Assembly (NCBI RefSeq): GCF_963921235.1
Contig: NC_086107.1
Location: forward strand, 116,686,001-116,750,000
Source: Mobula hypostoma
Taxonomy: Eukaryota
DNA: 64,000 nucleotides
Direction of reading: 5' to 3'
The position numbers were made by a program, and so were the translations under genes. The notes under the pieces were generated by a model. It was not told where the DNA came from. It worked only from the letters and a program-made list of their open reading frames with translations, and searched no databases. Positions 19,006 through 55,490 of the stretch are shown piece by piece (within the stretch, counting starts at the first letter, position 1; each line of letters begins with the position of its first letter).

Positions 19006-22000
19006 ACTGTGTTAGGCTGAAGCTGTTCACAGTGTGTTAGCCTGAAGCTGTTCACAGTGTGTTAGCCTGAAGCTGTTCACAGTCTGTTAGGCCTGAAGCT
19101 GTTCACAGTGTGTTAGCCTGAAGCTGTTCACAGTGTGTTAGCCTGAAGCTGTTCACAGTCTGTTAGGCCTGAAACTGTTCACAGTGTGTTAGCCTGAAGC
19201 TGTTCACAGTGTGTCAGGCCTGAAGCTGTTCACAGTGTGTCAGGCCTGAAGCTGTTCACAGTCTGTTAGGCCTGAAGCTGTTCACAGTGTGTCAGGCCTG
19301 AAGCTGTTCACAGTGTGTTAGCCTGAAGCTGTTCACAGTGTGTTAGCCTGAAGCTGTTCACAGTGTGTTAGGCTGAAGCTGTTCACAGTGTGTCAAGCCT
19401 GAAGCTGTTCACAGTCTGTTAGGCCTGAAGCTGTTCACAGTGTGTTAGCCTGAAGCTGTTCACAGTGTGTTAGCCTGAAGCTGTTCACAGTGTGTCAAGC
19501 CTGAAGCTGTTCACAGTGTGTTAGGCTGAAGCTCTTCACAGTCTGTTAGGCCTGAAGCTGTTCACAGTGTGTTAGGCCTGAAGCTGTTCACAATGTGTTA
19601 GCCTGAAGCTGTTCACAATGTGTTAGCCTGAAGCTGTTCACAGTGTGTTAGCCTGAAGCTGTTCACAGTGTGTCAGGCCTGAAGCTGTTCACAGTGTGTT
19701 AGCCTGAAGCTGTTCACAGTCTGTTAGGCCTGAAGCTGTTCACAATGTGTTAGCCTGAAGCTGTTCACAGTGTGTTAGCCTGAAGCTGTTCACAGTCTGT
19801 TAGGCCTGAAGCTGTTCACAGTGTGTCAGGCCTGAAGCTGTTCACAATGTGTTAGCCTGAAGCTGTTCACAGTCTGTTAGGCCTGAAGCTGTTCACAGTG
19901 TGTCAGGCCTGAAGCTGTTCACAATGTGTTAGCCTGAAGCTGTTCACAGTGTGTTAGCCTGAAGCTGTTCACAGTGTGTCAGGCCTGAAGCTGTTCACAG
20001 TGTGTTAGCCTGAAGCTGTTCACAGTGTGTCAGGCCTGAAGCTGTTCACAGTGTGTCAGGCCTGAAGCTGTTCACAGTGTGTTAGGCTGAAGCTGTTCAC
20101 AGTCTGTTAGGCCTGAAGCTGTTCACAGTGTGTTAGCCTGAAGCTGTTCACAGTCTGTTAGGCCTGAAGCTGTTCACAGTGTGTTAGCCTGAAGCTGTTC
20201 ACAGTGTGTTAGGCTGAAGCTGTTCACAGTCTGTTAGGCCTGAAGCTGTTCACAGTGTGTTAGGCTGAAGCTGTTCACAGTCTGTTAGGCCTGAAGCTGT
20301 TCACAGTCTGTTAGGCCTGAAGCTGTTCACAGTGTGTTAGGCTGAAGCTGTTCACAGTGTGTCAGGCCTGAAGCTGTTCACAGTGTGTTAGGCTGAAGCT
20401 GTTCACAGTGTGTTAGCCTGAAGCTGTTCACAGTGTGTCAGGCCTGAAGCTGTTCACAGTGTGTCAGGCCTGAAGCTGTTCACAGTGTGTTAGGCTGAAG
20501 CTGTTCACAGTGTGTCAGGCCTGAAGCTGTTCACAGTGTGTTAGGCTGAAGCTGTTCACAGTGTGTCAGGCCTGAAGCTGTTCACAGTGTGTTAGGCTGA
20601 AGCTGTTCACAGTCTGTTAGGCCTGAAGCTGTTCACAGTGTGTTAGCCTGAAGCTGTTCACAGTCTGTTAGGCCTGAAGCTGTTCACAGTGTGTTAGCCT
20701 GAAGCTGTTCACAGTGTGTCAGGCCTGAAGCTGTTCACAGTGTGTTAGCCTGAAGCTGTTCACAGTGTGTCAGGCCTGAAGCTGTTCACAGTCTGTTAGG
20801 CCTGAAGCTGTTCACAGTGTGTTAGCCTGAAGCTGTTCACAGTCTGTTAGGCCTGAAGCTGTTCACAATGTGTTAGGCTGAAGCTATTCACAGTCTGTTA
20901 GGCCTGAAGCTGTTCACAGTGTGTTAGCCTGAAGCTGTTCACAGTCTGTCAGGCCTGAAGCTGTTCACAGTGTGTCAGGCCTGAAGCTATTCACAGTGTG
21001 TTAGCCTGAAGCTGTTCACAGTGTGTCAGGCCTGAAGCTGTTCACAGTGTGTTAGCCTGAAGCTGTTCACAGTCTGTTAGGCCTGAAGCTGTCCACAGTG
21101 TGTCAGGCCTGAAGCTGTTCACAGTGTGTTAGGCTGAAGCTGTTCACAGTGTGTTAGTCTGAAGCTGTTCACAGTGTGTTGGGCTGAAGCTGTTCACAGT
21201 GTGTTAGCCTGAAGCTGTTCACAGTGTGTCAGGCCTGAAGCTGTTCACAGTATGTTAGGCCTGAAGCTGTTCACAGTCTGTTAGGCTGAAGCTGTTCACA
21301 GTGTGTTAGCCTGAAGCTGTTCACAGTGTGTCAGGCCTGAAGCTATTCACAGTGTGTTAGCCTGAAGCTGTTCACAGTCTGTTAGGCCTGAAGCTGTCCA
21401 CAGTGTGTCAGGCCTGAAGCTGTTCACAGTGTGTTAGGCTGAAGCTGTTCACAGTGTGTTAGTCTGAAGCTGTTCACAGTGTGTTGGGCTGAAGCTGTTC
21501 ACAGTGTGTTAGGCTGAAGCTGTTCACAGTGTGTCAGGCCTGAAGGTGTTCACAGTATGTTAGGCCTGAAGCTGTTCACAGTCTGTTAGGTTGAAGCTGT
21601 TCACAGTGTGTCAGGCCGAAGCTGTTCACAGTGTGTCAGGCCTGAAGCTGTTCACAATGTGTCAGGCCTGAAGCTGTTCATAATGTGTTAGGCTGAAGCT
21701 GTTCACAGTGCAGACATCCCACCCTGCAAAAACTCATTTCAGGGAGGTAGCACCACCAATTTGCGGGAGGCTCCCGGGAGAGGTGTGTGTCTACAATAGA
21801 GTAGCTCCTTAGCAGCTGGCCAGCTAGTTTAAATAACATTAGCTTGCTAATGAACAAATGACACCTGTTAAACTCACCTCAACCTGTTGCAAGCAGTGCA
21901 GTGAGCAACACTGTCATTATTTTTGACCCCTATTAGGCAGGGGTACACTTTAGTGTAGTCTGGGGTGATGTACATTTTATATTTTCCTTGGAACACTCTG

Positions 22001-23460: not shown

Positions 23461-24031
23461 GCCTCTCTGTCCACTCTCTCATCCTGTGCACACTCCCCAT
23501 TCTCCCCCCATGCCGCAACTGATCCCTCCCTGTTTCCCCTCACCACCCACACCCAAAAGAACTTGGATATGGGATATTTGACTCCCCCCTGCAACCCCCT
23601 CCTCAATCTGAGGCATTCGGAGGTTCCTTTGCCCAAGTGAGTGGTCTTCGATAGGGAATCCTGCAGTTCAAAATCGTTGCTTACGTCTGAGGTCAGTGAC
23701 TGGTGTTTAGGAGGCATTGGTCGTGTGTGTGTTTGAGAGCAGCTGTCCATGTTTGACTGTGGTTGCTCACACTTACAAAATGGTGCTGTGGATTTGAGAG
23801 TGGCTGCATGTGTTTGAGCGATGTGCACTTGTCAGAGGCCGTACATTTACGAGTGGCTAGTTGTCTGCATTGGTGAGTGACTTGTGATTGGGTGCAGCAC
23901 TGGTATCTGAGTGTGGTGGCTGGTGTGATTGTGTCTGAGTACAGTTGTGAACAGTTACTCATGTTTGTCTCCGTATGAGCACACTGACCCCTCTCTCTCT
24001 CTCTCTCTCTCTCCACCCCACCCCACTACAG

Positions 24032-24334
24032 TACAGACAGCAGCACACCCTCCTGCACAAGCTGAACGGCATCCTAATGCTGCTGACGTTCTTCGCCTGC
24101 CGAGTAGCCCTCTTCCCCTACCTGTACTGGGCGTACGGGCAGCACACGGGGCTGCCTCTCCACCGTGTGCCCCTAGAACTTCCCTTCCACGTTAACCTGG
24201 CCGCCCTCACCCTGATGGCCCCCCAGCTGTACTGGTTTGCTCTCATCTGCCGTGGGGCACTGCGCCTATTCCGTCGGGGACGCTCCGGACGCCCGCAGAT
24301 CAATGGCTGGGCACCTGGACCTCCCCCCTCCTAA
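24032..24334 (+). CDS. TLCD3B: TLCD3B last coding exon, ending at TAA
   Basis: (CT)n tract plus ctacAG acceptor. Translates YRQQHTLLHKLNGILMLLTFFACRVALFPYLYWAYG...PQLYWFALICRGALRLF...PPS*. Confidence 0.95.
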   Translation, partial: YRQQHTLLHKLNGILMLLTFFACRVALFPYLYWAYGQHTGLPLHRVPLELPFHVNLAALTLMAPQLYWFALICRGALRLFRRGRSGRPQINGWAPGPPPS

Positions 24335-31939: not shown

Positions 31940-34900
31940 TACACAGTGTGTGTCCAACCCTTATACACCGAGGTCACCCTAATCCTCTAGACTCCCCACC
32001 GTTCAGTGTGCCTCCTACCCTTGTACTCCGAGGTCTCTCTGTCCTTTGTCATCCCAACCATTCACAGTGAGTGACCTTGTACACCAAGATCTTCCGCCCC
32101 TTGACACTCCCCACTGTTCATGGTGTGGATCCTTCCCTTGTACACTGAGTTCCCTCTTTCCGTCAACATTCTCGATCATTCACAAAATGAGTGTCCTACC
32201 ATATACTCTGAGGTCCCTCTGTCCCTCGACATCCCAACCGTTCACAGGAATGTCTTACACTTGTACATCAAAGTCTCTCTGTCCCTCGAAACTAACCACC
32301 ATCCACAGTATGTGTCGTACCTTTTACACCGAGGACCCTCTGTCCAACGACACTTTCCACCATTCAGTGTGTGACCTACAGTTGTGCCCTCTGTCCCTTG
32401 ACACTCAACCAGTCACAGAGTATGTCCTATCTATAAACATGGAGGTCTTTCTGTCTCTCGACACTGCCCACCAATCACTGTGGCTGTCTAACCCTCGTAC
32501 ACCGAGGTCCCTCTGTCCCTCAACACTCCCCATTATTCTGTGTGAGTGTCCTACCTTTTTACACTGAGGTCCTTCTGTCCCTCGACTCTCTCCATCTATC
32601 ACAGTGAGTGTCCTAACCTTGCACACTGATGTCTCCCTGCTCCCCAACTCTCCCCAGCATTCATGGTGTGTGTTGTACCCTTGTACACCGAGCTCCCTAT
32701 GGTCGACACTCTCCACCATTCACAGTGTGTCCCCTACCCTGGTACTCCAAGGTCCCTCTGTCCCTCAACACTCCTCAACATTGACAGTGTGTGTCCTACC
32801 CTTGTACACCGAGCTCCCCCTATTCTCTGACACCCCTCTCCAATCACGGTATGTGTCCTACCCTTGTACTCTGAGGTCCCTCTGTCCCTTGACTATCCCA
32901 ACCAGTGAAGGTGTGTGTCCTACCCTTGAACACAGAGGTCCCTCTTTTCCTTGACACTACCCATCATTCATGGTGTGTGTGTTCTACCCTTGTACACCAA
33001 GGTCCCTCTGTCCATCAACATTACCCACTATTCACTGTCTGTGTTCTACACTTGTACACCGAGCATCGTCTGCCTCTCGACACACTCCAAAATTCAGAGT
33101 GAGTGTCTACCCTGTGTACACTGAGCTCCCTCTGTCTCTTGGCACTCCCCACCATTCACAGTGAGTGTGTTCTACCCTTGTACACCAAGGTCCCTCTGTC
33201 CATCAACATGATACTTTATACTTTATTGTCACCAAACAATTGATACTAGAACGTACAATCATCACAGCGATATTTGATTCTGTGCTTCCCGCTCCCTGGA
33301 GTACAAATCAATAGTAAATATTAAAAATTTAAATTATAAATCATAAATAGAAAATAGAAAATGGAAAGTAAGGTAGTGCAAAAAAACCGAGAGGCAGGTC
33401 CAGATATTTGGAGGGTACAGCCCAGATCCGGGTCAGGATCCGGGTCATTACCTACTGTTCACTGTCTGTGTTCTACCTTTGTACACCAAGCATCGTCTGC
33501 CTCTCGACACACTCTAAAATTCAGAGTGAGTGTCTACCCTGTGTACACTGAGCTCCCTCTGTCTCTTGGCACTCCCCACCATTCACAGTGAGTGCCCTAC
33601 ACTTGTACACCAAAGCCTCTCTGTCTCTGGACAGTAACCACTGTCCACAGTATGTGTCGTACCTTTTACACCGAGGACCCTCTGTCCCTCAACGCTTTCC
33701 ACCATTCACAGTGTGTGTTCTACAATTGTACACTGAGGTCCCTCTGTCCCTCGACACAACCAACCAGTCATGGTGTGTACTGTACCCTTGTACACTGAGT
33801 TCCCTCAGTCCCTTGATACTCAACCATTCGCAGGGTGTGTCCTACCTATAAACATGGACGTCTCTCTGTCCCTCAACAGTCCCCACTATTCACTGTGGCT
33901 GTCTGACCCCCGTACACCGAGGTCTGTCTCCACCATTCACAGAGGGTGTCCCATGCTTGTACACCAGCTCTCTCTGTCCTTTGATGCTCCCACCATTCAG
34001 AGTGAGTGTCTCACCATGTACACTTTCTGTCCCTCGACACTCCCCACCATTCATAGTGTCCTACCCCTGTACGCTGAGCTCCCTCTATTCTCCAACATGC
34101 TCCACCATTCACAATTTGTGTCCTACCCTTTGACACCAAGGTCTCCCTGTCTCTTCTTACTCACCAGCAGTCATGGCATGTGTCCTGCCCTTGCACATCG
34201 AGGTCCCTCTGTCCCTCAACACAGTCCACCATTCACAGACTGTGTCCTACCCTTGTACACCAAGCTCCCTGTCTCCCTCGACACCCCACCATTCATGGTG
34301 TATGCCTTACCCTTGTACACTGAGGTCCCCCTGTTCTCTGACACCCCCCACCCCCATTCATGGTGCGTGTCATATCCTTGTACACCGAGCTCCCTACGTC
34401 GCTTGACACTCTGTGCCATTCAATGTGTGTGTCCTAACCTCGTTCACCAATGTCTTTCTGTCGCTCGAAACTCTCCACCGTTCACAGTGTGTGCCCTACC
34501 CTTGTACATCAAGGTCCCTCTGTCCATCGACTCTCCCCACCATTTATGGTGTATGTCCTACCCTCGTACACTGGGGTCACTCTGTCCCTCATCACTTTCC
34601 ACCATTCACAGTGAGTGTCCTACCTTTGCACACCGATGTCTCCCTGTCCCTCAACACTCCCCACCACTCAATGTGTGTGTTCTACCCTTGTTCACCGAGT
34701 TTTCTCTGTCCCTCGAAACTCTCCACCATTCACAGTGTGTGTCATACCCTGGTACTCTGAAGTCCCTCTGTCCCTTAACACTCCCCACCATTGATAGTGT
34801 TTGCCCTACCCTTGTACACTTAGGTTCTTCTGTCTCTTGACACTCCCCTCCCTTCACAGAGTGTGTCCTACCCTTGTACACCGAGGTCCCTCTATTCTCC

Positions 34901-35215
34901 ATCACTCTCCTCCATTCATGGTGTGTCCCCTACCCTTGTACACCGAGCCACCTATGTCCCTCAACGCTCCCCACCATTCAATGTGTGTGTCCTACCCCTG
35001 TGCACTGATGTCTCTTGCTCAACTCTCCCCACCGTTCACAGTGTGTGTCATACCCTGGTACTCCGAGGTCTCTCTGTCCCTCGAGTCTCCCAACCAGTCT
35101 TGGTGTGTTTCCTACCCTGGACATGGATACATGGAGGTCCCTCTGTCCCTCGACACTCCCCACTACTGACAGCGTGTGTCCTACCCTTGTACACCGATGT
35201 CCCTCTTCCTGTTGA
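31940..35215 (-). repeat. 62-bp minisatellite (about 50 diverged units), reverse complement of the 380-965 array
   Basis: Unit ccttgtacaccgaggtccctctgtccctcgacactccccaccattcacagtgtgtgtcctac. Confidence 0.92.
33209..33447 (-). mobile_element. Short AT-rich insertion, probable LINE 3' end, within the 62-bp array
   Basis: Splits ccatcaaca^ttacc (intact at 33012-33025); tactttatactttattg tail-like end. Confidence 0.55.
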
Positions 35216-35300
35216 CATGCTTTAATATAAACTAGCTAATAAAGTACTTGCAACCCCAGAAATTGTCAGAGATTCCTTTCTCAGAGTTGTGTCTCGATGC

Positions 35301-36209
35301 TCACACTGGGTACAGACTGGGGGGTGAGGTAGAGGGAGCGTGTGTGTCTGATACCTGTCCTGGGAGCTCTCTATACTCACACTGGGTACAGACTGGGGGG
35401 TGAGGTAGAGGGAGTGTGTGTGTCTGATACCTGTCCTGGGGGCTCTCTATGTCCACACTGGGTACAGACTGGGGGGTGAGGTAGAGGGTGTGTGTCTGTC
35501 TGATATCTGGCCCGGGAGCTCTCTATACTCACACTGGGTACAGACTTGGGGGTGAGGTAGAGGGAGCCGTGTGTGTCTGATATCTGGCCCGGGAGCTCTC
35601 TATACTCACACTGGATACAGACTGGGGGGTGGGAGAGGGAGCGTGTGTGTCTGATACCTGTCCTGGGGGCACTCTATGTCCACACTCGGTACAGACTGGG
35701 GGGTGAGGTAGAGGGAGTCGTGTGTCTGATACCTGTCCTGGGGGCTCTCTATGTCCACACTGGGTACAGACTGGGGGGTGAGGTAGAGGGTGTGTGTGTG
35801 TCTGATACCTGTCCCGGGGGCTCTCGATGTCCACACTGGGTACAGACTGGGGGGTGAGGTAGAGGGTGTGTGTGTGTCTGATACCTGTCCCGGGGGCTCT
35901 CTATACTCACACTGGGTACAGACTGGGGGGTGAGGTAGAGGGTGTGTGTGTGTCTGATACCTGTCCCGGGGGCTCTCGATGTCCACACTGGGTACATACT
36001 GGGGGGTGAGGTAGAGGGAGTGTGTGTGTCTGATACCTGGCCCGGGGGCTCTCTATACTCACACTGGGTACAGACTGGGGGATGAGGTAGAGGGAGTGTG
36101 TGTGTCTGATACCTGTCCCGGGGGCTCTCTATACTCACACTGGGTACAGACTGGGGGGTGGGAGAGGGAGCGTGTGTGTCTGATACCTGTCCCGGGGGTT
36201 CTCTATGTC
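35301..36209. repeat. 76-bp minisatellite (about 12 units)
   Basis: cacactgggtacagactggggggtgaggtagaggg...ctgatacctgtcc recurs at 35302, 35378 and 35454. Confidence 0.93.
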
Positions 36210-36329
36210 CGTCCCATCCACCCCTGGGATCTTCCTCTGTAACTCCACCATCAAATGCTGCACAGCCATTTGCTGAGAAGAAGCGGGTGGGTGTTAGAGT
36301 TGTGATGTCACTGTGTGAGGGTGGGTGAA

Positions 36330-36351
36330 AGGTCATGGGTCACTGTGACCT
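36330..36351 (+). promoter_or_regulatory. Overlapping DR1 and consensus ERE-type palindrome upstream of the FIMP-like ATG
   Basis: AGGTCAtGGGTCActgTGACCT = AGGTCA-n-GGGTCA plus GGTCA-nnn-TGACC. Function untested. Confidence 0.35.
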
Positions 36352-36438
36352 CACCCTGGACACCTTTGTCAGGTCATCAGGAGTGGAGAGAATTCCATTC
36401 ATGTCCACCCCACCCACTCTGTTCAGTCCAGCCTAGGG

Positions 36439-36502
36439 ATGTGGGGTCGGGCTACTGTCTGTGGGATCTTTCTCTGCACAGTTGCGGTGGCTGCTCCTGA
36501 CG
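36439..36502 (+). CDS. FIMP/C16orf92-like gene, exon 1 (signal peptide)
   Basis: ATG at 36439 with G at -3; MWGRATVCGIFLCTVAVAAPD has a hydrophobic core and AxA-type cleavage region; phase-1 donor G|GTAGGT. Confidence 0.7.
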
Positions 36503-36767
36503 GTAGGTTCTCCCATCACCCCTGACCTCTGGTGCCCTGGGCTCACAGGTGGGGTCTGTGAGTGAACCCCTCCTCGTGACCTCTTTCCCTTAGTGACCTC
36601 CCGATCTGCCACTGAGGGTACTGTCTGTGACCTCGTGACCTCCCCCCAGGGGTCAATCTGTGACCTCCTGATCTGCCACCGGGAGATCAATCTGATCTGT
36701 GTGCATGGTGTGTGAGGTGTGGGATGGAGAGGGCACACTGCCCCCCCTTCCGCCTCCCCTGCTGCAG

Positions 36768-36848
36768 ACACCTTGGATGGGGTGATGAAGAAGGTTCTGC
36801 TGGGGTCTTTATGCACCTCAATTGCACTTCCTCACCTCTCTTACTGGG
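36768..36848 (+). other. Diverged duplicate of FIMP-like exon 3 inside intron 1 (possible cassette exon or pseudo-exon)
   Basis: ctgcAG acceptor, TLDGVMKKVLLGSLCTSIALPHLSYW, G|GTAAAT donor; 81 nt, phase 1-1. Upstream intronic flank also resembles 39150-39215. Confidence 0.55.
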
Positions 36849-37015
36849 GTAAATCTGTGACCTCCTGACTTGTCAACGGGGTAGGGGTCGTGGTCAATTT
36901 TGACCTCCTGGCCTCCCACCAGTGGCCATTCTATGACCACCTGACCTCCACCAGGGGTGAGTGTGTGACCTCCTGACCCAGGGTGACCCCTTGCCATCTC
37001 TCTGGGTCTGTGCAG

Positions 37016-37111
37016 GGTCCCGCCGACACTGGTGGGATTATGGCGACAACGACCGACGCCTCATCGAGCAGACGTATGGCTGGATCCACGAGAGCCCTGA
37101 CCTTCCCGCAA
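37016..37111 (+). CDS. FIMP/C16orf92-like gene, exon 2 (ectodomain, 96 nt, phase 1-1)
   Basis: ctgtgcAG acceptor and A|GTGAGT donor; CpG-rich unique sequence. Translates (G)SRRHWWDYGDNDRRLIEQTYGWIHESPDLPA. Confidence 0.8.
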
Positions 37112-37696
37112 GTGAGTGAGCAAAACGCCAATAATTGGAATGGTATGTGAGGCATGTGGGCAGCGGGGACTACATAATGGCATCTGCATGTCATACAGGA
37201 GTTGTGGGTGTGGTGCAAGGGGTATTGATAGAACACAGAGCTGAGCTGAGAAATAGCAGGCAGAGTTTAGTCCTGAAAACTGTGAAGTGATTCACTTTGA
37301 AATGTTGAACTTGAAGGCAGAATACAGGGTTAATGCAGGATTCCTAGCAGTGTGGAAGAACAGAGGAGTCAATGTCCATCGATGTCTCAAAGTTGACAGG
37401 GTGGTTAAGAAGGTGTGGGGTGTGTTGGCCTTCATTAGTCATGAGATTGAGCTCAATAACAGGGAGGGAGTGTTGTAGCTCCGTAAAACTCTGGTCAGAC
37501 TGCACTTGGAATATTCTGTTCAGTTTTGGTCATCGCATTATAGGAAGAACATGGAAGCTTTAGAGAGGGTGCAGGGGAGATTTAGCAGGATGCTGCCTGA
37601 ATTAGAGAGCGTGTCTGATGAGGGAAGCTTGAGCAAGCTAGGGTGTTTCTCTTTGAGTGAAGGATGAGGCGACTTAATAAGAGTTGTACAAGATGA

Positions 37697-38813
37697 TGGG
37701 GCCTTGGGAAAAGTATTCAGCCCCCAATCCTTTGTTCACATAAATGAGTATTACAACCAGTGATTTTTTGAGTATTAACTGAGAGTTTTTATTTTCACAG
37801 TAGAGCCCAAAAAATTGTAAAGCATAAAGAAGTAAAAATTTTAAAATTGAAATGTCAGCGGTTCGAAAGTATTCATCCCCCTCTGCTTAGTACTTAGTTG
37901 AACAACCTCTCGTAGCCATCTCAGCCAGCAGTCTTTTTGGATAAGTCTCTATTAGCTTTGCACAATATAATGGAGCAAGCTTTGCCCAATCCTCGTAAAA
38001 TTATTCCTGGTTAGTTGGGGAGTGGCTGCAGACAGCAACATTGAGTTCTTGCAAGAGATATTTGATCAGGCCAAGGTCAGGACTTTGACTGGGCCCCTCA
38101 AGGACATTAATTTTCTTCATTTGAAACCACTCCATAGATGCTCTGACAGTGTGCTTTGGGTTGCTGTCCAGTAGAAAGATTAGTTTCTTCCACAGTTTAA
38201 GCTTTCTGGCAGAGGCATTAGCAGATTTGTACCCAGGATCTCTGTGTATTTAACGGCATCAATCCTGACCAGATTTCCAGTCCCTGCTTCACATACATTA
38301 CAGCAGGGATGGTGTTATCTGGCTGATGTGCAGTATTAGATTTAGACTTCATGTACCACTGACATGTTGAAGCCAAAATGTTCCAATTTAGTCTCATCCG
38401 ACCACAAGACCTTCTTCCAAATCTTTACTCTGATGCTTTGCAAAGTCTTTATGGGCAAGGATATGCTTTTTTTAGCTAAGGCTTTTTCCTTGCCACTCTT
38501 CCATAAATACCCTTTTTGTGCAAGGCCTTAGAGACTGTGGAGTCGTGAAGTTCATCTCCAGTTGCAGCCACTGACTTCTGCAGTTCACTCAGAGTGACTG
38601 TTGGCCCTCCTTCTCCAGCAACTCAGTTTAGAGGGATGGCCTACCTAGGCAGTGTGGTGTTGGCTTCATATTTTTTCCATTTTTGATTTAACATATGCAC
38701 AATGTTTTGTAGATTAGCTCAAAAAATTCTACTTCAATATATTTTAGATTTAGAAAATTGGGCAGTAAAATGTGAAAATAGTTGTGGGGGCTGAATACTT
38801 TTCCAAGTCTCTG
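37697..38813 (-). mobile_element. Tc1/mariner relic inside a CR1 fragment (CR1 at ~37240-37696 and 38816-39075)
   Basis: TIRs gccttgggaaaagtattcagcccc / ggggctgaatacttttccaagtctctg followed by TA; minus-strand KVLWSDETKLEHFG at ~38375-38415. Confidence 0.85.
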
Positions 38814-39215
38814 TAGATAGAGTGGGCAGCTGGAGGGTGGAATATGAGGGGGTTCATACAAGAGGATCAGGTGATTGGAGGAAAGTATTGGGGGGATGTC
38901 AGAGGAAGGTTTTTTTTTACACAGAGTGGTGGATGCATTACTGGGGTGGTGGTAGATAGGCACATGGATGATAGAAACATGGTGACTGTTCAGGAGGGAA
39001 GGGTTCGATTGATGTTGGGTCAGCAAAATATCATGGGCCAAAGGACCTGGACTGTGCTGTAGTGTTCTATATTGAATTGAATGTGTAACGGAGTCCATGC
39101 ATTGTAGAGGAACCAGGTGCGGGCAGTGGGTACAGCACATAGGGAGGGTCTGTGTTCATGGTCTCTGAGGCGTGTGATTGGAAGAGAATGCTGACTGCCC
39201 CTCCCTCCACTGCAG

Positions 39216-39303
39216 ACACTCTGGATGGAGTGATGAAGAAAGTTCTGCTGGGATCTTTCTGTGCTGCCTTTGCGGTGATGCTGGGACTGATGTGCTGCTT
39301 CCG
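39216..39303 (+). CDS. FIMP/C16orf92-like gene, exon 3 (transmembrane)
   Basis: ccactgcAG acceptor, phase compatible with exon 2. Translates (N)TLDGVMKKVLLGSFCAAFAVMLGLMCCF(R). Donor CG|GTGAGA; read-through also stops at TGA 39305-39307. Confidence 0.75.
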
Positions 39304-39339
39304 GTGAGAGCTCAGAGGCTTCGGGAGTTGAGGGAGAGA

Positions 39340-39850
39340 CACAGCTTGGAAACAGGTCGCACAGCCCAACAGGTCCTTGCCTGACTAGATCCCCACCTGT
39401 CTGCGCTTGGCCCCTATCCCTTTCAACCTTTCCTATCCATGAGCCTATCCAAGTGTCTTTTCAATGTTGTTAATGTACCTGCCTCAGCCACTTCCTCTGG
39501 CAGCTTGTTCCATATACAGACCACCCTCTGGATGAAAACGTTGATCATCGAGTCCCTGCTAAATCTCTCCCCTCTCACCTTAAACCTGTTCCCTCTGGTT
39601 CTTGATTGCCCAACCCTGGGGGAAAAGACTGTGCACATTCACCCTGTCCATACCCCTCGTGGTTTTATACACCTCCATAAGGTCACCCCTCAGTGTCCTG
39701 AACTCCAGGGAATAAAATCCCAACCTGCCCACCCTCTCTCCAGTCCTTCGATTCCTGTCAATCTCCCCTGCATCTCTAACAAGTTAGTGGCATCTTTCCT
39801 ACAGCAGGGTGACCAGAACGGAACACAATTCTCCAAGTGAGGCCTCACGT
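39340..39850 (-). mobile_element. CR1 3' fragment
   Basis: RTRGNRFKVRG...FIQRVVCIWNKLP. Confidence 0.8.
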
Positions 39851-40189
39851 CTCCTTCAGCCCATCACTGCTGCTGGGGCACAGGCCAGCGACAGCCACTC
39901 ACTAGAGTCCTCTGTCTTTCACATCGCCCCCAGATGTAGACCATTTTAACGTCTTTCCTTTCCCAGGGATGAGGTCTTTGGAGCCTCTGTAGCGGTGGGT
40001 TTTTATGGGATGTGGTTGCTAGCCCCATGCCCAGTGACCCTCCTTTCACTGCCGGGCTTTGTACTGTCCATGGCGGAGTTAGACAGCCTTACTCACATCA
40101 TGGACGACTGCAACGTAACATCCCAACTCCTGTACTCAGGTCCCTGACTGATAAAGCCAGTGTGCCAAACATCTTCACTAACATCTTCA

Positions 40190-43100
40190 GCCAGTTAGAA
40201 CAGTGAGAAGAGTTTAAAAGGAGACAGCTTTACAGAGCGGGCAACGGAGTAGAGGGAGACAGAGTAGGAGGGCTTTGTCTTAATGGGACTTTGGTGATAA
40301 CGGGTTGAAGCAAGGTAGGTTGCCTGTGTAGAATACAGACAGGAAGTATGTGTGTGAGGCCAGTGTTCTGTGCTCGGTGTCTGACGTGGGAAGTCCTGGA
40401 GACTCCCAGCCTCCCGGACGGCCACATATGCACCAGGTAGGAGGAGCTGCACCTCCTTAGGGACCGGGTTAGGCAGCTCGATGACCTTCGTCTGGTCAGG
40501 GAGAGTGAGGAGGTGATAGAGAGGAGCTATAGGCAGGTGGTCACACCGGGGCCTGGGGAGACAGATAAGTGGGTAACAGTCAGGAGAGGGAAGGGCAAGA
40601 GTCAGATACTAGAGAGTACCCCTGTGGCTGTCCCCCTTAACAATAAGTACTCCTGTTTGAGTACTGTTGGGGAGGAAGCCTGCCTGAGGGAAGCAACAGT
40701 AGCTGCGCCTCTGACACAGAATCTGGCCCTGTGGCTCAGAAGGGTAGGGAAAGGAAGAGGATGGCAGCAGTGATAGGAGACTCTAGAGTTAGGGGGTCAG
40801 ACAGGCGATTCCGTGGACGCAGGAAAAAAACTTGAAAAAAACAGGACCACAAAAGATAGTAATCTTGGGATTACTGCCTGTGCCACGTGACAGTGAGTAT
40901 ATGAATAGTGAGGTGGAGGATAAATGTGTGGCTGAGGGATTGGAGCAGGGGACAGGGATTCAGATTTCTGGATCATTGGGACCTCTTTTGGGGCAGGTGT
41001 GACCTGTACAAAAAGGACGGGTTGCATTTGAATCCCAGTGAGGCCAATAACCTGGTGGGGAGGTTTGCTAAGGCTATTGAGCAGAGTTTTAATTAGAATT
41101 GCTGGGGTGTGGGAACCGAACTGAAGAGACGGAGGAAGAGGCGGTTGGCTCACAAATAGAGAAAGCTTGTAGACAGTATGAGAGGACAGATAGGCAGGTG
41201 ATAGAGAATGGATGCGCTCAGACCAACAGTTTGAGATGTCTATTTTAATGTAAGGAGTATTATGAACAAGCGGATGAGCTTAGAGCGTGGATCAGTACTT
41301 GGAGCTATGATGTTGTGGCCATCACAGAGACTTGGATGGCTCAGGGGCATAGAAACATAGAAAATAGGTGCAGGAGTAGGCCATTCGGCCCTTCGGCCCT
41401 TCAAGCCTGCACCGCCATTCAGTATGATCATGGCTGATCATCCAACTCAGAACCCTGTACCTGCCTTCCCTCCATACCCCCTGATCCCCTTAGCCACAAG
41501 GGCCATATCTAACTCCCTCTTAAATATAGCCAATGAACTGGCCTCAACTGTTTCCTGTGGCAGAGAATTCCACAGATTCACCACTCTCTGTGTGAAGAAG
41601 TTTTTCCTAATCTTGGTCCTAAAAGGCTTCCCCTTTATCCTCAAACTGTGACCCCTCATTCTGGACTTCCCCAACATCGGGAACAATCTTCCTGCATCTA
41701 GCCTGTCCAATCCCTTTAGGATTTTATACGTTTCAATCAGATCCTCCCTCAATCTTCTAAATTCCAACGAGTAAAAGCCTAGTTCATCCAATCTTTCATC
41801 ATATGAAAGTCCTGCCATCCCAGGAATCAATCTGGTGAACCTTCTTTGTACTCCCTCTATGGCAAGGATGTCTTTCCTCAGATTAGGGGACGAAAACAGC
41901 ACACAATACTCCAGGTGTGGTCTCACCAAGGCCTTGTACAACTGCAGTAGTACCTCCCTGCTCCTGTACTCAAATCCTCTCGCTATAAATACCAGCATAC
42001 CATTCGCCTCTTTCACCGCCTGCAGTACCTGCATGCCCACTTTCAATGACTGGTGTATAATGACACCCAGGTCTTGTTGCACCTCCCCTTTTCCTAATTG
42101 GCCACCATTCAGATAATAATCTGTTTTCCTGTTTTTTGCCACCAAAGTGGATAACTTCACATTTATCCACATTAAATTGCATCTGCCATGAATTTGCCCA
42201 CTCACCTAACCTATCCAAGTCACCCTGCATCCTCTTAGCATCCTCCTCACAGCTAACACTGCCGCCCAGCTTCGTGTCATCCGCAAACTTGGAGATGCTG
42301 CATTTAATTCCCTCATCCAAGTCATGAATATATATTGTAAACAACTGGGGTCCCAGCACTGAGCCTTGCGGTACCCCACTAGTCACTGCCTGCCATTCTG
42401 AAAAGGTCCCATTTATTCCCACTCTTTGCTTCCTGTCTGCCAACCAATTCTCTATCCACATCAATACCATACCCCCAATACCGTGTGCTTTAAGTTTGCA
42501 CACTAATCTCCTGTGTGGGACCTTGTCAAAAGCCTTTTGAAAATCCAAATATACCACATCCACTGGTTCTCCCCTATCCACTCTACTAGTTACATCCTCA
42601 AAAAATTCTATGAGATTCGTCAGACATGATTTTCCTTTCACAAATCCATGCTGACTTTGTCCGATGATTTCACCGCTTTCCAAATGTGCTGTTATCACAT
42701 CTTTGATAACTGACTGTAGCAGTTTCCCCACCACCGATGTTAGGCTAACCGGTCTATAATTCCCTGGTTTCTCTCTCCCTCCTTTTTTAAAAAGTGGGGT
42801 TACATTAGCAACCCTCCAATCCTCAGGAACTAGTCCAGAATCTAAAGAGTTTTGAAAAATTATCACTAATGCATCCACTATTTCTTGGGCTACTTCCTTA
42901 AGCACTCTGTGATGCAGACCATCTGGTCCTGGGGATTTATCTGCCTTTAATCCCTTCAATTTACCTAACACCACTTCCCTTCTAACATGTATTTCCCTCA
43001 GTTCCTCCATCTCACTGGACCCTCTGTCCCCTACTATTTCCGGAAGATTATTTATGGCTACTTAGAGTACCAGGCTTTAGATGTTTCAGAAAGGACAGGG

Positions 43101-44160
43101 AGGGAGGCAAAAGAGGTGGGGGCGTGGCACTGCTGATCAGAGATAGTGTCACGGCTGCAGAAAAGGAGGAAGTCATGGAGGGATTGTCTATTGAGTCTCT
43201 GTGGGTGGAAGTTAGGAACAGGAAGAGGTCAATAACTCTACTGGGCATTTTTTATAGACCACCCAATAGTAACAGGGACATCGAGGAGCAGATAGGGAGA
43301 CACATTCTGGAAAGGTGTAATGATAACAGGGTTGCCGTGGTGGGAGATTTTAATTTCCCAAATATTGATTGGCATCTCCCTGGAGCGAGGGGTTTAGATG
43401 GGGTGGAGTTTGTTAGGTGTGTTCAGGAAGGTTTCCTGACACAATATGTAGATAAGCCTACAAGTGGAGAGGCTGTACTTGATCTGGTATTGGGAAATGA
43501 ACCTAGTCAGCTGTCAGATCTCTCAGTGGGAGAGTAGTTTGGAGATAGTGATCATAATTCTATCTCCTTTACCATAGCATTGGAGAGGGATAGGAACAGA
43601 CAAGTTAGGAAAGCGTTTAATTGAAGTAAGTAAATATGAGGCTATCAGGCAGGAATTTGGAAGCATAAATTGGGAACAGATATTCTCAGGGAAATATACA
43701 GCAGAAATATGGCAAATGGTCAGGGGGTATTTGCGTGGTGATCTGCATAGGAACGTTCCAATGAGACAGGGAAAGGATGGTAGGGTACAGGAACCGTGGT
43801 GTACAAAGGCTGTTGTAAATCTAATGAAGAAGAACAGAAAAGCTTACGAAAGGTTCAAAAAACTAGGTAATGATAGAGATCTAGAAGATTATAAGGCTAG
43901 CAGGAAGGAGCTTAAGAATGAAATTAGGAGAGCCAGAAGGGGCCATGAGAAGGCCTTGGTGAGCAGGATTATGGAAAATCCCAAGGCATTCTACCAGTAT
44001 GTGAAGAGCAAGAGGATAAAATGAGGGAGAATAGGACCAATCAAGTGTGACAGTGGCAAAGTGTGTATGGAACCGGAGGAGATAGCAGAGGTACTTAATG
44101 AATACTTTGCTTCAGTATTCACTACGGAAAAGGATCTTGGCAATTGTAGGGATGACTTGT
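40190..44160 (+). mobile_element. CR1 5' part (ORF1 and ORF2 APE), split by a nested antisense CR1
   Basis: ORF1 MCVRPVFCARC...; FLDHWDLFWG...DGLHLN; APE YRPPN, VGDFNFP, LDLVLGN. Confidence 0.85.
41348..43055 (-). mobile_element. Young CR1, 5'-truncated, antisense
   Basis: 346-aa open RT (41970-43010) plus C-terminal ORF; (tttctatg)n tail. Confidence 0.92.
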
Positions 44161-46409: not shown

Positions 46410-48382
46410 GGAGTCGCTTAGCAATTTTGTGCAAAGGTGTTTATAAGGCAGCATATATGAGGTTTAGGAAGCAAGGATCACATGGGTCTATTAAGGAATA
46501 TAGGGAAGCAAGAAAGGAGCTTAAGAAGGGGCTGAGAAGAGCAAGAAGGGGGCATGATAAGGCCTTGGCGAGTAGGATAAAGGAAAACCCCAAGGCATTC
46601 TTCAATTACGTGAAGAAAAAAAGATGACAGGAGTGAAGGTAGGACTGATTAGAGATAAAGGTGGGAAGATGTGCCTGGAGGCTGTGGAAGTGAGCGAGGT
46701 CCTCAGTGAATACTTCTCTTTGGTATTCACCAATGAGAGGGAACTTGATGATGGTGAGGACAATATGAGTGAGGTTGATGTTCTGGAGCATGTTGATATT
46801 AAGGGAGAGGAGGTGTTGGAGTTGTTAAAATACATTAGGACAGATAAGTCCCTGGGGCATTATGGAATATTCCCCAGGCTGCTCCACGAGGCGAGAGAAG
46901 AAATTGCTGAGCCTCTGGCTAGGATCTTTATGTCCTCGTTGTCCACGGGAATGGTACCGGAGGATTGGAGGGAGGCGAATGTTGTTCCCTTGTTCAAAAA
47001 AGGTAGTAGGGATAGTCCGGGTAATTATAGACCAGTGAGCCTCATGTCTGTGGTGGGAAAGCTGTTGGAAAAGATTCTTAGAGATAGGATCTATAGGCAT
47101 TTAGAGAATCATGGTCTGATCAGGGACAGTCAGCATGGCTTTGTGAAGGGCAGATCGTGTCTAACAAGCCTGATAGAGTTCTTTGAGGAGGTGACCAGGC
47201 ATATAGATGAGGGTAGTGCAGTGGATGTGATCTATATGGATTTTAGTAAGGCATTTGACAAAGTTCCACACGGTAGGCTTATTCAGAAAGTTAGAAGGCA
47301 TGGGATCCAGGGAAGTTTGGCCAGGTGGATTCAGAATTGGCTTGCCTGCAGAAGGCAGAGGGTGGTGGTGGAGGGAGTACATTCAGATTGGAGGATTGTG
47401 ACTAGTGGTGTCCCACAAGGATCTGTTCTGGGACCTCTACTTTTCGTGATTTTTATTAATGACCTGGATGTGGGGGCAGAAGGGTGGTTGACACATTTGC
47501 AGACGACACAAAGGTTGGTGGTGTTGTAGATAGTGTAGAGGATTGTCAAAGATTGCAGAGAGACATTGATGCAGAAGTGGGCTGAGAAGTGGCAGATGGA
47601 GTTCAACCCGGAGAAGTGTGAGGTGGTACACTTTGGAAGGACAAACTCCAAGGCAGAGTACAAAGTAAATGGCAGGATACTTGGTAGTGTGGAGGAGCAG
47701 AGGGATCTCGGGGTACATGTCCACAGATCCCCGAAAGTTGCCTCTCAGGTGGATAGGGTAGTTAAGAAAGCTTATGGGGTGTTAGCTTTCATAAGTCAAG
47801 GGATAGAGTTTAAGAGTCGCGATGTAATGATGCAGCTCTATAAAACTCTGGTTAGGCCACACTTGGAGTATTGTGTCCAGTTCTGGTCACCTCACTATAG
47901 GAAGGATGTGGAAGCATTGGAAAGGGTACAGAGGAGATTTACAAGGATGCTGCCTGGTTTAGAAAGTATACATTATGATCAGAGATTAAGGGAGCTAGGG
48001 CTTTACTCTTTGGAGAGAAGGAGGATGAGAGGAGACATGGTAGAGGTGTACAAGATAATAAGAGGAATAGATAGAGTGGACAGCCAGCGCCTCTTCCCCA
48101 GGGCACCACTGCTCAATACAAGAGGATATGGCTTTAAGGTAAGGGGTGGGAAGTTCAAGGGGGATATTAGAGGAAGGTTTTTTACTCAGAGAGTGGTTAG
48201 TGCGTGGAATGCACTGCCTGAGTCAGTGGTGGAGGCAGATACACTAGTTAAGTTTAAGAGACTACTAGACAGGTATATGGAGGAACTTAAGGCGGGGGCT
48301 TATATGGGAGGCAGGGTTTGAGGGTCGGCACAACATTGTGGGCCGAAAGGCCTGTACTGTGCTGTACTATTCTATGTTCTAT
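46410..48382 (+). mobile_element. CR1, 5'-truncated ORF2; an older CR1 piece precedes it at ~46100-46405
   Basis: RT ORFs 46624-47529 and 47566-48321; (ttctatg)n tail. Confidence 0.92.
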
Positions 48383-49459: not shown

Positions 49460-50095
49460 TCAGAATCAGGGTTATTATCATCGGAATGTGACGTGAAATT
49501 TGTTAACGTAGCAGCAGCAGTTCAATGCAATACATAATCTAGCAGAGAGAGAAAAAAATAATAAAATACACAAAATAATAAATAAACAAGTAAATCAATT
49601 ACGTATATTGAATAGATTTAAAAGAATGTGCAAAAACAGAAATACTGTATAGTAAAAAAAGTGAGGTAGTGTCCGAAGCTTCAATGTCCTTTTAGGAATT
49701 GGATGGCAGAGTGGAAGAGGCTGTTCCTGAATCGCTGAGTGTGTGCCTTCAGGCTTCTGTATCTCCTACCTGATTGTAACAGTGAGAAAAGGGCATGCCC
49801 TGGGTGCTGGAGGTCCTTAATAATGGACGCTGCCTTTCTGAGACACCGCTCCCTAAAGATGTCCAGGGTACTTTGTAGGCTGGTACCCAAGATGGAGCTG
49901 ACTAGATTTACAACCTTCTGCTGCTTCTTTCGGTCCTGTGCAGTAGCCCCTCCATACCAGACAGTGATGCAGCCTGTCAGAATGCTCTCCACAGCACATC
50001 TATTGAAGATTTTGAGTGTATTTGTTGACATGCCAAATCTCTTCAAATTCCCAACAAAGTATAGTCGCTGTCTTGCCTTCTTTATAACTACATTG
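49460..50095 (-). mobile_element. Rex1/Babar-type LINE 3' portion
   Basis: RCAVESILTGCITVWYG...DRKKQQKVV...HPGHALFSLLQSGRRYRS. Confidence 0.85.
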
Positions 50096-50104
50096 ATAAC
50101 TACA

Positions 50105-51535
50105 AGGCAGGGAGAGAGAAACCGGGGAATTATAGACCGGTTAGCCTGACATCGGTGGTGGGGAAAATGCTAGAGTCAGTTATCAAAGATGTGATAACAG
50201 CACATTTGGAAAGGGGTGAAATCATCGGACAAAGTCAGCATGGATTTGTGAAAGGAAAATCATGTCTGACGAATCTCATAGAATTTTTTGAGGATGTAAC
50301 TAGTAGAGTGGATAGGGGAGAACCAGTGGATGTGGTATATTTGGATTTTCAAAAGGCTTTTGACAAGGTCCCACACAGGAGATTAGTGTGCAAACTTAAA
50401 CCACACGGTATTGGGGGTATGGTATTGGTGTGGGTGGAGAATTGGTTAGCAGACAGGAAGCAAAGAGTGGGAATAAACGGGACCTGTTCAGAATGGCAGG
50501 CAGTGACTAGTGGGGTACGGCAAGGCTCAGTGCTGGGACCCCAGTTGTTTACAATATATATTAATGACTTGGATGAGGGAATTAAATGCAGCATCTCCAA
50601 GTTTGCGGATGACACGAAGCTGGGCGGCAGTGTTAGCTGTGAGGACGATGCTAAGAGGATGCAGGGTGACTTGAATAGGTTGGGTGAGTGGGCAAATTCA
50701 TGGCAGATGCAATTTAATGTGGATAAATGTGAAGTTATCCACTTTGGTGACAAAAATAGGAAAACAGATTATTATCTGAATGGTGGCTGATTAGGAAAAG
50801 GGGAGGTGCAACGAGACCTGGGTGTCATTATACACCAGTCATTGAAAGTGGGCATGCAGGTACAGCAGGCGGTGAAAAAGGCAAATGGTATGCTGGCATT
50901 TATAGCGAGAGGATTCGAGTACCGGAGCAGGGAGGTACTACTGCAGTTGTACAAGGTCTTGGTGAGACCACACCTGGAGTATTGTGCGCAGTTTTGGTCC
51001 CCTAATCTGAGGAAAGACATCCTTGCCGTAGAGGGAGTACAAAGAAGGTTCACCAGATTGATTCCTGGGATGGCAGGACTTTCATATGAAGAAAGACTGG
51101 ATGAACTAGGCTTTTACTCGTTGGAATTTAGAAGATTGAGGGGGGATCTGATTGAAACGTATAAAATCCTAAAGGGATTGGACAGGCTAGATGCAGGAAG
51201 ATTGTTCCCGATGTTGGGGAAGTCCAGAATGGGGGGTCACAGTCTGAGGATAAAGGGGAAGCCTTTTAGGACCAAGATTAGGAAAAACTTCTTCACACAG
51301 AGAGTGGTGAATCTGTGGAATTCTCTGCCACAGGAAACAGTTGAGGCCAGTTCATTGGCTATATTTAAGAGGGAGTTAGATATGGCCCTTGTGGCTACGG
51401 GGATCAGGGGGTATGGAGGGAAGGCTAGTGCAGGGTTCTGAGTTGGATGATCAGCCATGATCATAATAAATGGCGGTGCAGGCTCGAAGGGCCGAATGGC
51501 CTACTCCTGCACATATTTTCTATGTTTCTATGTTT
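50105..51535 (+). mobile_element. Young CR1, near-identical to 41348-42790 in the opposite orientation
   Basis: Translated ORFs match those of the 41447-43010 copy almost residue for residue. Confidence 0.92.
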
Positions 51536-55255: not shown

Positions 55256-55490
55256 TTAGGGTGAGGGTGAGGGTTACGGTTATGGGTGAGGGTGAGGGTT
55301 AGGGTGACGGTTAGGGTGAGGGTTACGGGTGAAGGTGAGGGTGAGGGTTACGGTTATGGGTGTGGGTTAAGGTTGCGGGTTAGGGTGAGGGTGAGGGTTA
55401 CGGTTACGGGTGAGGGTGAGGGTTAGGGTGACGGTTAGGGTGAGGGTTATGGGTGAAGGTGAGGGTGAGGGTTACGGTTACGGGTTAGGG
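55256..55490 (+). repeat. Degenerate interstitial telomere-like array (TTAGGG, TGAGGG, TTACGG, TTATGG)
   Basis: About 39 hexamer units by direct inspection. Confidence 0.85.

Follow-up and report, generated by a model that had tools for sequence, protein, structure and literature searches.

The window, that is, the whole stretch of 64,000 nucleotides that was analyzed, contains exons of tlcd3ba and, downstream of them, a plus-strand locus made up of three small exons and perhaps a fourth. The features are listed here in order of position.

Within 925-1317 and 2033-2170: earlier exons of tlcd3ba; TLC domain
24026..24334, plus strand: last coding exon and stop codon of tlcd3ba, the TLCD3B/FAM57B orthologue; TLC domain
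36439..36502, plus strand: exon 1, 64 nt; ATG at 36439; signal peptide, 21 codons plus 1 nt; donor ACG/GTAGGT
36700..36813, plus strand: partial duplicate of the end of intron 2 and the first 46 nt of exon 3, lying inside intron 1
37016..37111, plus strand: exon 2, 96 nt; acceptor ...tgtgcag/G, donor CAA/GTGAGT; ectodomain; phase 1 at both ends
37030-37056 (WWDYGDNDR) and 37081-37092 (WIHE), plus strand: FIMP-like TMEM95-binding motif in exon 2
38004..38622, minus strand: Tc1/mariner transposase remnant inside intron 2, outside the product of the gene
39216..39303, plus strand: exon 3, 88 nt, transmembrane (TM); acceptor ...cactgcag/A, donor CCG/GTGAGA; phase 1 in, phase 2 out
39304..39307, plus strand: read-through end, completing an Arg codon, followed by TGA at 39305-39307; overlaps the exon 3 donor
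39711..39716, plus strand: AATAAA, from a sequence scan; the sole canonical poly(A) signal within 39308-41000

The three GT-AG exons with compatible phases that a sequence-only reading had proposed were recovered as described, with both introns in phase 1 and a joined frame that is open and yields the peptide it had given. The ATG at 36439 is the first in-frame start, none lying upstream of it within its open frame. On a crude position weight matrix, all five splice sites fall between the 97.9th and 99.6th percentiles among plus-strand GT/AG sites (exon 1 donor, 97.9th; exon 2 sites, 98.2nd and 99.4th; exon 3 donor, 99.1st). Across both strands, 33 open internal-exon candidates were counted and a TM-like stretch was present in just one, exon 3, a count for which the model's own weakest sites set the splice thresholds and for which both splice and TM thresholds were chosen post hoc, with the model already seen. 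Exon 2 is single copy in the genome and lies outside repeats, and local tblastn and blastn searches of the window turned up no second exon 1 or exon 2, the sole copy being the exon 3 fragment. Weak matches at 62185 and 63791, considered as exon copies, were rejected as transposon or low-complexity frames. The exon model exceeds chance expectation.

The 3' end can be drawn in two ways. The frame of the claimed 83-amino-acid product stands, but its last Arg and its stop require read-through of the donor GT at 39304, and since this Arg and the TGA exist only by such read-through, the 83-residue form is one of two possible ends, which would apply only if exon 3 is the last exon. The AATAAA at 39711..39716 could serve as the poly(A) signal of such a transcript. 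It is also possible that exon 3 is spliced in phase 2 onto a candidate fourth exon; none could be singled out downstream of exon 3, and the DNA beyond 39385 is repeat derived.

A type I membrane topology is predicted for the product of about 83 amino acids, in which a signal peptide would be cleaved from an ectodomain of ~40 residues and a single TM helix is followed by almost no cytoplasmic tail. Crude hydropathy places hydrophobic cores at residues ~5-20 and ~62-82, in agreement with the signal peptide, short ectodomain, and single TM segment that had been claimed. Compared with the published boundaries of mouse FIMP (signal peptide, 1-23; ectodomain, 24-79; TM, 80-102; tail, 103-111; 2020 supplement), the same crude profile matches the type I single-pass layout of that protein, and the ray product shares with mammalian FIMP a signal peptide, a short ectodomain, one TM segment, and a tiny tail. 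The likeness extends to gene structure. Mouse Fimp has four exons, of which the third is 88 bp long and encodes the TM segment, and its isoforms are identical up to nucleotide 226, which corresponds to 75 codons plus 1 nucleotide and consequently to an intron in phase 1; in ray and mouse genes alike, a phase 1 intron thus precedes a TM exon of 88 nt, and a donor closes that exon. They differ in the length of coding exons 1 and 2 together (160 nt in the ray, 226 nt in mouse) and of the ectodomain, which at ~42 residues is ~14 shorter in the ray than the 56 residues of mouse. No likeness is evident between the TM exon peptides of the two, and the ray model ends at exon 3, whereas mouse has a fourth exon, for which a ray counterpart was not found.

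The motif within exon 2 connects this architecture to a defined interaction surface. A 2026 preprint names human FIMP residues FFDY, D73, F85, I86, and E88 in its text, and DYPDSDQ is encoded by a human C16orf92 reverse transcription-PCR primer that the 2020 supplement lists; together, the printed residues and the primer bear out the FIMP motif given in the earlier reading. The spacing was said to be identical, and WWDY-x-D ... WI-x-E in the ray does agree with FFDY-x-D ... FI-x-E in human, both proteins having an aromatic-aromatic-D-Y-x-D-x-D loop and, 16 residues on, aromatic-I-x-E. The ray differs in having WW for FF and W for F85. Across 14 human residues named in print (F68, F69, D70, Y71, P72, D73, S74, D75, Q76, V82, F85, I86, E88, and F93), taken from text and primer rather than from a full FIMP sequence, the ray has W, W, D, Y, G, D, N, D, R, T, W, I, E, and P, of which 6 of 14 are identical and a further 3 of 14 are aromatic for aromatic. 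Alanine at human F68, F69, or Y71 abolishes TMEM95 binding (2026 preprint), and the ray counterparts of these are W27, W28, and Y30. The BLOSUM62 sum of 33 is the top score among the 46,503 stop-free positions of the six-frame window, with a per-position P of ~4e-7 to 9e-7, and is reached in 2 of 200 shuffled windows; the 10 preprint residues alone give a score of 27, reached in 1 of 20 shuffles. The TMEM95-binding motif of FIMP thus appears to be present in the ray in conservative form, with W for F, as a candidate binding site.

The neighborhood points in the same direction. The tlcd3ba exons are identical at 101 of 102 and 73 of 74 residues to the NCBI protein "TLC domain containing 3Ba", and the gene ends 12.1 kb upstream of the candidate on the same strand, as expected from the claimed TLCD3B neighbor. 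Exons of INO80E lie ~64-74 kb downstream of the candidate on the minus strand (L013:9648-9962 and L014:9617-9811). As the human 16p11.2 order is INO80E, DOC2A, C16orf92, FAM57B, ALDOA (review table), the candidate is flanked by tlcd3ba and INO80E as FIMP is in human, where it sits beside TLCD3B/FAM57B within the INO80E-ALDOA block. The further expectation of doc2a downstream was put to a weak test and was not borne out: DOC2A, which should fall between FIMP and INO80E, gave no C2 match among open reading frames of at least 45-50 amino acids from 39.8 kb to ~164 kb, and none of 141 genome-wide C2 matches lies in C45:116.69-116.85 Mb, in a search that scored 150 of 238 candidates and would miss short exons.

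A different line of evidence comes from the partial duplicate within intron 1. Its acceptor at 36767/36768 is as strong as that of exon 3, and its similarity to exon 3 stops at 36813/39261. Over 15 aligned codons there are six synonymous differences and one nonsynonymous difference, and the match is visibly poorer over the 66 nt of duplicated intron than over the exon part. We count this 6:1 bias in favor of the gene model, as a likely sign of selection on the frame. The remnant in intron 2 matches HTH_Tnp_Tc3_2 at 38479-38622 (E value of 2.5e-10) and DDE_3 at 38004-38249 (E value of 2.2e-4), and the surroundings of the candidate are rich in satellites and transposons.

Taken together, splice sites, gene structure, motif, synteny, and synonymous bias support the assignment to FIMP well, if indirectly. 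We consider it probable that the candidate is an unannotated orthologue of FIMP (C16orf92/4930451I11Rik) in a devil ray or a very close relative, 12 kb downstream of tlcd3ba. Of the orthology originally argued from motif, topology, and synteny, all three grounds stand and are joined by the phase 1, 88-nt TM exon and by INO80E; the doc2a part of the synteny was not found.

Searches of protein databases with the individual exons returned no FIMP. None of the three exon peptides matched a Pfam family at an E value of ≤10, the PDB gave just acylphosphatase and capsid matches for exon 2 (E values of 0.4-1.6), and the ESM Atlas held no usable match to the ray exon. A full HMMER pass of the 52-amino-acid open frame around exon 2 over 1.84 billion representatives likewise detected no FIMP, and no longer or near-length homologous protein of this frame emerged as a candidate. 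The only nominally significant matches, seven repeat proteins from that pass, for example PKD repeats with WWDFGDG, were judged spurious, their score being summed over many repeats. No significant match is to be expected when a 31-residue query is set against 1.8 billion proteins at such divergence. Exon 2 is absent from all annotated proteins searched, although the NCBI proteins of this assembly were included. In three small runs from one study, of uncertain tissue and type, no junctions of the proposed introns were detected over 36215-42215; the reads cover mainly transposon-derived parts, leave the exon 2 bins at zero depth, and are uninformative on expression. A contig from run X1 (257 nt; depth, 2.1) passes unspliced across the exon 1 donor at 36488-36744.

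The absence of exon 2 from every annotated protein would also suit a relic, a locus descended from FIMP whose expression or function was lost in this lineage, as would the broken copy of exon 3 in intron 1, the satellite- and transposon-rich surroundings, and the unclear 3' end of the gene. A decayed gene is nonetheless improbable here, as the frame is intact from the ATG to the TM segment with no stop or frameshift, the five splice sites are strong, the positions essential in human FIMP are still aromatic, and exon 3 differs from its copy by six synonymous changes to one nonsynonymous.

It could also be speculated that the gene is real but unrelated, a lineage-specific small type I membrane gene with a FIMP-like motif by chance. 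Short aromatic and acidic motifs are recurrent, the same stretch matches WWDFGDG of PKD and HMWDYGDN of a viral capsid, and shuffled windows do at times (2 of 200) reach the motif score. The PKD repeats (WDFGDG motif) share with the ray the stretch W-W-D-[FY]-G-D, but a PKD domain spans ~85 residues, folds as a beta-sandwich, and occurs in repeats within large proteins, and as just ~10 residues match within a 32-residue exon, ray exon 2 is not a PKD domain. Convergence is very unlikely overall, since chance would jointly have to account for a correctly spaced motif located in the ectodomain, a TM exon of 88 nt entered in phase 1, and a location flanked by tlcd3b and ino80e. That there is no gene at all, with open frames and GT/AG sites lining up fortuitously in intergenic DNA full of repeats, is equally hard to credit: one contig is unspliced over the exon 1 donor and the model was chosen by eye out of 64 kb, but the splice-site percentiles, the one TM-like exon among 33 candidates, the synonymous bias in the duplicate, a motif score that tops the window, and a single-copy, nonrepeat exon 2 all speak against it.

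If the FIMP orthologue is accepted, a role can be suggested by analogy with mammalian FIMP, in which case the ray protein would sit in the acrosomal membrane of sperm. Through its aromatic loop (WWDY-G-D) and the short helix after it (..W-I-H-E), it would bind the basic alpha3/alpha4 face of TMEM95 or, alternatively, that of another IZUMO-like four-helix protein, and the docked protein would form part of a sperm complex required in gamete fusion. Transcription, testis specificity, TMEM95 binding, and a role in fertilization are what we infer for the ray gene. For the presumed partner, the Pfam profile PF15203 gave no matches over the genome at an E value of ≤0.001 and eight at ≤10. One open reading frame (L021:449-754, minus strand) matches profile positions 99-148 with 18.8 bits, under the cutoff of 27, and had no further exon in the 20 kb upstream and no PDB match; matches at L002 and L003 look like noise.

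These results bear on the age of FIMP. Few sperm proteins are known to be indispensable for gamete fusion in mice; FIMP is among them, and it was shown in 2026 to bind TMEM95 via the motif matched in the ray. Current accounts treat FIMP as a late, mammal-centered addition, and its distribution in vertebrates has been described as "limited and scattered" (2026 preprint). The stronger claim, that it is restricted to mammals, is contradicted by the 2020 supplement, in which two lizards, Pogona vitticeps and Podarcis muralis, and one caecilian, Rhinatrema bivittatum, are among the FIMP sequences (Fig. S1D legend). These squamate and amphibian records, which count among the roughly 213 known FIMP orthologues, are all from tetrapods, and the ray is a cartilaginous fish. 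The step back to early jawed vertebrates proposed from the sequence therefore keeps its end point and changes its beginning, running from tetrapods to jawed vertebrates and not from mammals. In the sources consulted, no report of FIMP in cartilaginous fish was found, the figures in PMC13192892 and 10.64898/2026.05.14.724122 being places where shark status may appear. The ray gene, a probable new member of the known FIMP family, would, on those sources, be the first from a cartilaginous fish.

We tentatively propose, as a conceivable if somewhat doubtful history, that FIMP, together with the module by which it docks to TMEM95, dates back at least to the last common ancestor of jawed vertebrates instead of being a tetrapod innovation, that the present scatter reflects repeated loss (for example, in teleosts), and that retention tracks internal fertilization with acrosome-bearing sperm in mammals, squamates, caecilians, and elasmobranchs. 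Pogona, Podarcis, and Rhinatrema are all internal fertilizers, like rays. If the ray gene is a true orthologue, the module would date from the base of the jawed vertebrates, and BLAST surveys of annotated proteomes would be shown to overlook tiny genes of this kind; under the history proposed above, small, unannotated FIMP orthologues would be hidden in many nonmammalian genomes. A sequence this distant would also separate the constrained residues of the interface (aromatic-aromatic-D-Y-x-D) from the variable ones and would provide a testable link between the retention of FIMP and internal fertilization.

The unannotated three-exon gene on the plus strand at 36439-39307 is likely to be a genuine orthologue of FIMP (C16orf92 in human, 4930451I11Rik in mouse), the sperm membrane protein needed for mouse sperm-egg fusion, and so a member of a known family. 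Orthology had been proposed in a sequence-only reading of this DNA, and motif, topology as judged by hydropathy, gene structure, and synteny all favor it, with the undetected DOC2A neighbor counting against it. The borders, phases, and open joined frame of the three proposed exons are borne out by the sequence, with both introns in phase 1.

Exons of the candidate gene (a slash marks the splice border)
36439-36502, plus strand: exon 1, 64 nt, begins at the ATG; donor ACG/GTAGGT
37016-37111, plus strand: exon 2, 96 nt; acceptor ...tgtgcag/, donor /GTGAGT
39216-39303, plus strand: exon 3, 88 nt; acceptor ...cactgcag/, donor /GTGAGA

The ATG at 36439 is the first within its open frame and has G at -3. 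By hydropathy, the peptide starts with a hydrophobic core preceded by a basic residue and ends with a second core, roughly 20 residues long, and then Arg. The 83-residue product proposed earlier stands as an open frame to exon 3 but is only one of two possible ends, as its final Arg and TGA (39305-39307) need read-through of the donor at 39304. The other possible end is a phase-2 splice from exon 3 onto a fourth exon, and none is identifiable downstream. Among all plus-strand GT sites of the window, the donors of exons 1, 2, and 3 fall at the 97.9th, 99.4th, and 99.1st percentiles of a crude position weight matrix, and the acceptors of exons 2 and 3 at the 98.2nd and 99.6th percentiles of a crude score over all plus-strand AG sites. 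With thresholds set post hoc at the gene's own weakest sites, the two strands of the window together yield 33 candidates for open internal exons 50-200 nt long, and a single one, exon 3, encodes an 18-residue hydrophobic stretch. Exon 2 occurs once across the 3.48-Gb assembly.

Evidence on the reading frame comes from a partial duplicate inside intron 1.

Partial duplicate
36700-36813, within intron 1: copy of 39153-39261, the tail of intron 2 together with 46 nt from the start of exon 3

Seven of 15 aligned codons differ between the duplicate and exon 3, six synonymously and one non-synonymously. If about one-quarter of random changes are synonymous, such a proportion is unlikely (about 0.003 by our own estimate) and points to selection acting on the exon 3 reading frame. 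The duplicated intron portion diverges more than the coding portion, and the likeness ends abruptly. The duplicate's acceptor at 36768 equals that of exon 3 in strength, and splicing of exon 1 to it would yield a short product without the WWDY exon. The duplicate hints at an alternative exon or at an earlier duplication of the gene in tandem. Separately, the signal-peptide core in exon 1 (36458-36489) and the transmembrane core in exon 3 (39244-39277) are 82% identical across 34 nt (E 0.02 within the window), probably through chance or common hydrophobic codon use. In three small sequencing runs (type guessed), no joint matching the proposed introns was found, and only one unique piece lies close to the gene, a contig of 257 nt (depth 2.1) that extends without splicing from 36488 into intron 1; these data, from unspecified tissue, speak neither for nor against expression. 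That the locus is a silent relic keeps a residual probability.

The structure can be compared with that of mouse Fimp, which is described as having four exons, the third being an 88-bp transmembrane-encoding exon left out of a secreted isoform (Fujihara et al. 2020, PMC7196805). The reported isoforms are identical to nt 226 of a 336-bp coding sequence (PMC7196805), that is, 75 codons plus one nucleotide, which places a phase-1 intron before the transmembrane exon. Ray exon 3 is alike in phase-1 entry and 88-nt length and likewise has a strong donor after it, in a comparison drawn from published statements about FIMP. Mouse FIMP is given as signal peptide 1-23, ectodomain 24-79, transmembrane segment 80-102, and tail 103-111 (PMC7196805).

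The second exon carries the likeness to the TMEM95-binding surface. According to a preprint, human FIMP contacts TMEM95 via a loop at residues 62-75 and, after it, a short helix at 76-86, with F69, D70, and Y71 bonding to K67, W90, and R70 of TMEM95, V82, F85, and I86 packing on it, and binding lost in F68A, F69A, and Y71A (Liu et al. 2026, 10.64898/2026.05.14.724122). A human RT-PCR primer listed in the 2020 supplement translates to DYPDSDQ, FIMP positions 70-76 (PMC7196805). At the same spacing, as had been noticed beforehand, the second ray exon encodes W W D Y G D N D R ... T .. W I. E .... P, identical at 6 of the 14 named human positions and aromatic for aromatic at 3. Scored by BLOSUM62 at these 14 positions over 46,503 stop-free six-frame positions of the window, 37030-37107 ranks first with 33 (next, 26 and 25), a per-position probability of about 4e-7 to 9e-7, a score reached in 2 of 200 shuffled windows; the preprint's 10 residues alone put the same place first (27), exceeded in 1 of 20 shuffles. 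Taken alone, at about 0.01 per window, the match is suggestive, and it gains weight because the exon that carries it encodes the ectodomain of a gene with signal peptide and transmembrane segment that has independent support.

In a protein collection that includes the NCBI proteins of this assembly, no protein of 28-2000 residues shares three 5-residue words with the exon 2 frame, and the gene appears unannotated there. An exhaustive HMMER pass with that frame gave seven matches, every one a long repeat protein (the three inspected were PKD-type WWDFGDG repeats and two further tandem-repeat proteins), and Pfam, PDB, and Atlas yielded nothing. As a 31-residue query is too short for significance at such divergence, these blanks are silent on homology to mammalian FIMP. 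An unrelated small membrane gene is a residual reading, as is a chance assembly of the three exons.

The neighborhood agrees with that of human FIMP.

Neighboring exons
925-1317, 2033-2170, and 23951-24331 (lying within), plus strand: TLC-domain exons of tlcd3ba
L014:9617-9811 (fetched piece), minus strand: INO80E exon, Pfam INO80E profile 1-19, 21.8 bits
L013:9648-9962 (fetched piece), minus strand: INO80E exon, profile 18-41, 30.4 bits, over the cut-off

The expected tlcd3b neighbor is confirmed by near-identity (101/102 and 73/74 residues, identical barring split codons) to the protein that NCBI names "TLC domain containing 3Ba [Mobula hypostoma]"; other best matches are FAM57B/TLCD3B of bony vertebrates. 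The candidate ATG lies 12.1 kb downstream of the tlcd3ba stop. The INO80E pair (G000:C45:116789648-116799811, on the contig carrying the window) stands in profile order on the minus strand, within the 100 kb covered downstream, and the 16p11.2-like block extends in the ray to these exons. A review lists HIRIP3, INO80E, DOC2A, C16orf92, FAM57B, and ALDOA as consecutive at human 16p11.2 (PMC11211608); given its tlcd3ba and INO80E neighbors, the candidate occupies FIMP's human position. The doc2a gene anticipated downstream did not appear, no DOC2A (C2 domain) exon being found before the INO80E exons in a screen that misses short exons.

The locus is rich in repeats. Large tandem arrays lie at 35292-36210, 32189-35206, 425-961, and 19008-21710. 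A 76-bp unit repeated 12 times ends about 230 bp ahead of the candidate ATG, several blocks of a 62-bp satellite family flank the last tlcd3ba exons on both sides, and a 51-bp unit recurs 53 times within the long tlcd3ba intron. An interstitial telomere-like repeat of TTAGGG-derived units (e.g., TTAGGGTGAGGG) occupies 55256-55492, some 0.3 Mb short of where the 117.07-Mb contig ends. Numerous LINE fragments on both strands, with reverse transcriptase and endonuclease domains, fill the tlcd3ba intron as well as the stretch that follows the candidate gene (4597-5451, with a GDSL-lipase/esterase domain in its ORF, 5961-6512, 6977-7770, 9486-10082, 12240-12728, 41973-43534, 46576-47526, 50065-50787, and others).

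By analogy with mammalian work, it can be hypothesized that the mature ray protein would be anchored in the acrosomal membrane and present its WWDY-G-D loop and W-I-x-E helix to TMEM95, on the basic face formed by alpha3/alpha4, a contact that would be placed inside a multi-protein sperm fusion complex. The best TMEM95-like ORF of the ray (L021:449-754, a fetched piece, minus strand; G000:C67:30797449-30797754) aligns with the C-terminal third of the TMEM95 Pfam profile at 18.8 bits, below the cut-off of 27 (E 0.0013 for a single protein). The ORF carries NCSGCC...C ahead of a transmembrane-like stretch and may represent the final exon of a TMEM95-like gene; no further exon was found within 20 kb upstream, and PDB gave no match.

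FIMP had been described as mammal-restricted, and the 2020 main text describes it as conserved in mammals (PMC7196805); this is contradicted by that paper's own supplementary list of "51 eutherian mammals," which contains the lizards Pogona vitticeps and Podarcis muralis and the caecilian Rhinatrema bivittatum (PMC7196805). The text examined from the literature on FIMP and TMEM95 reports no FIMP in cartilaginous fish, and as far as could be checked the claim is new. If true, it would shift the origin of FIMP from tetrapods, rather than mammals, back to jawed vertebrates, and its interest would grow should the TMEM95-FIMP module prove ancestral to jawed vertebrates and kept in internal fertilizers.
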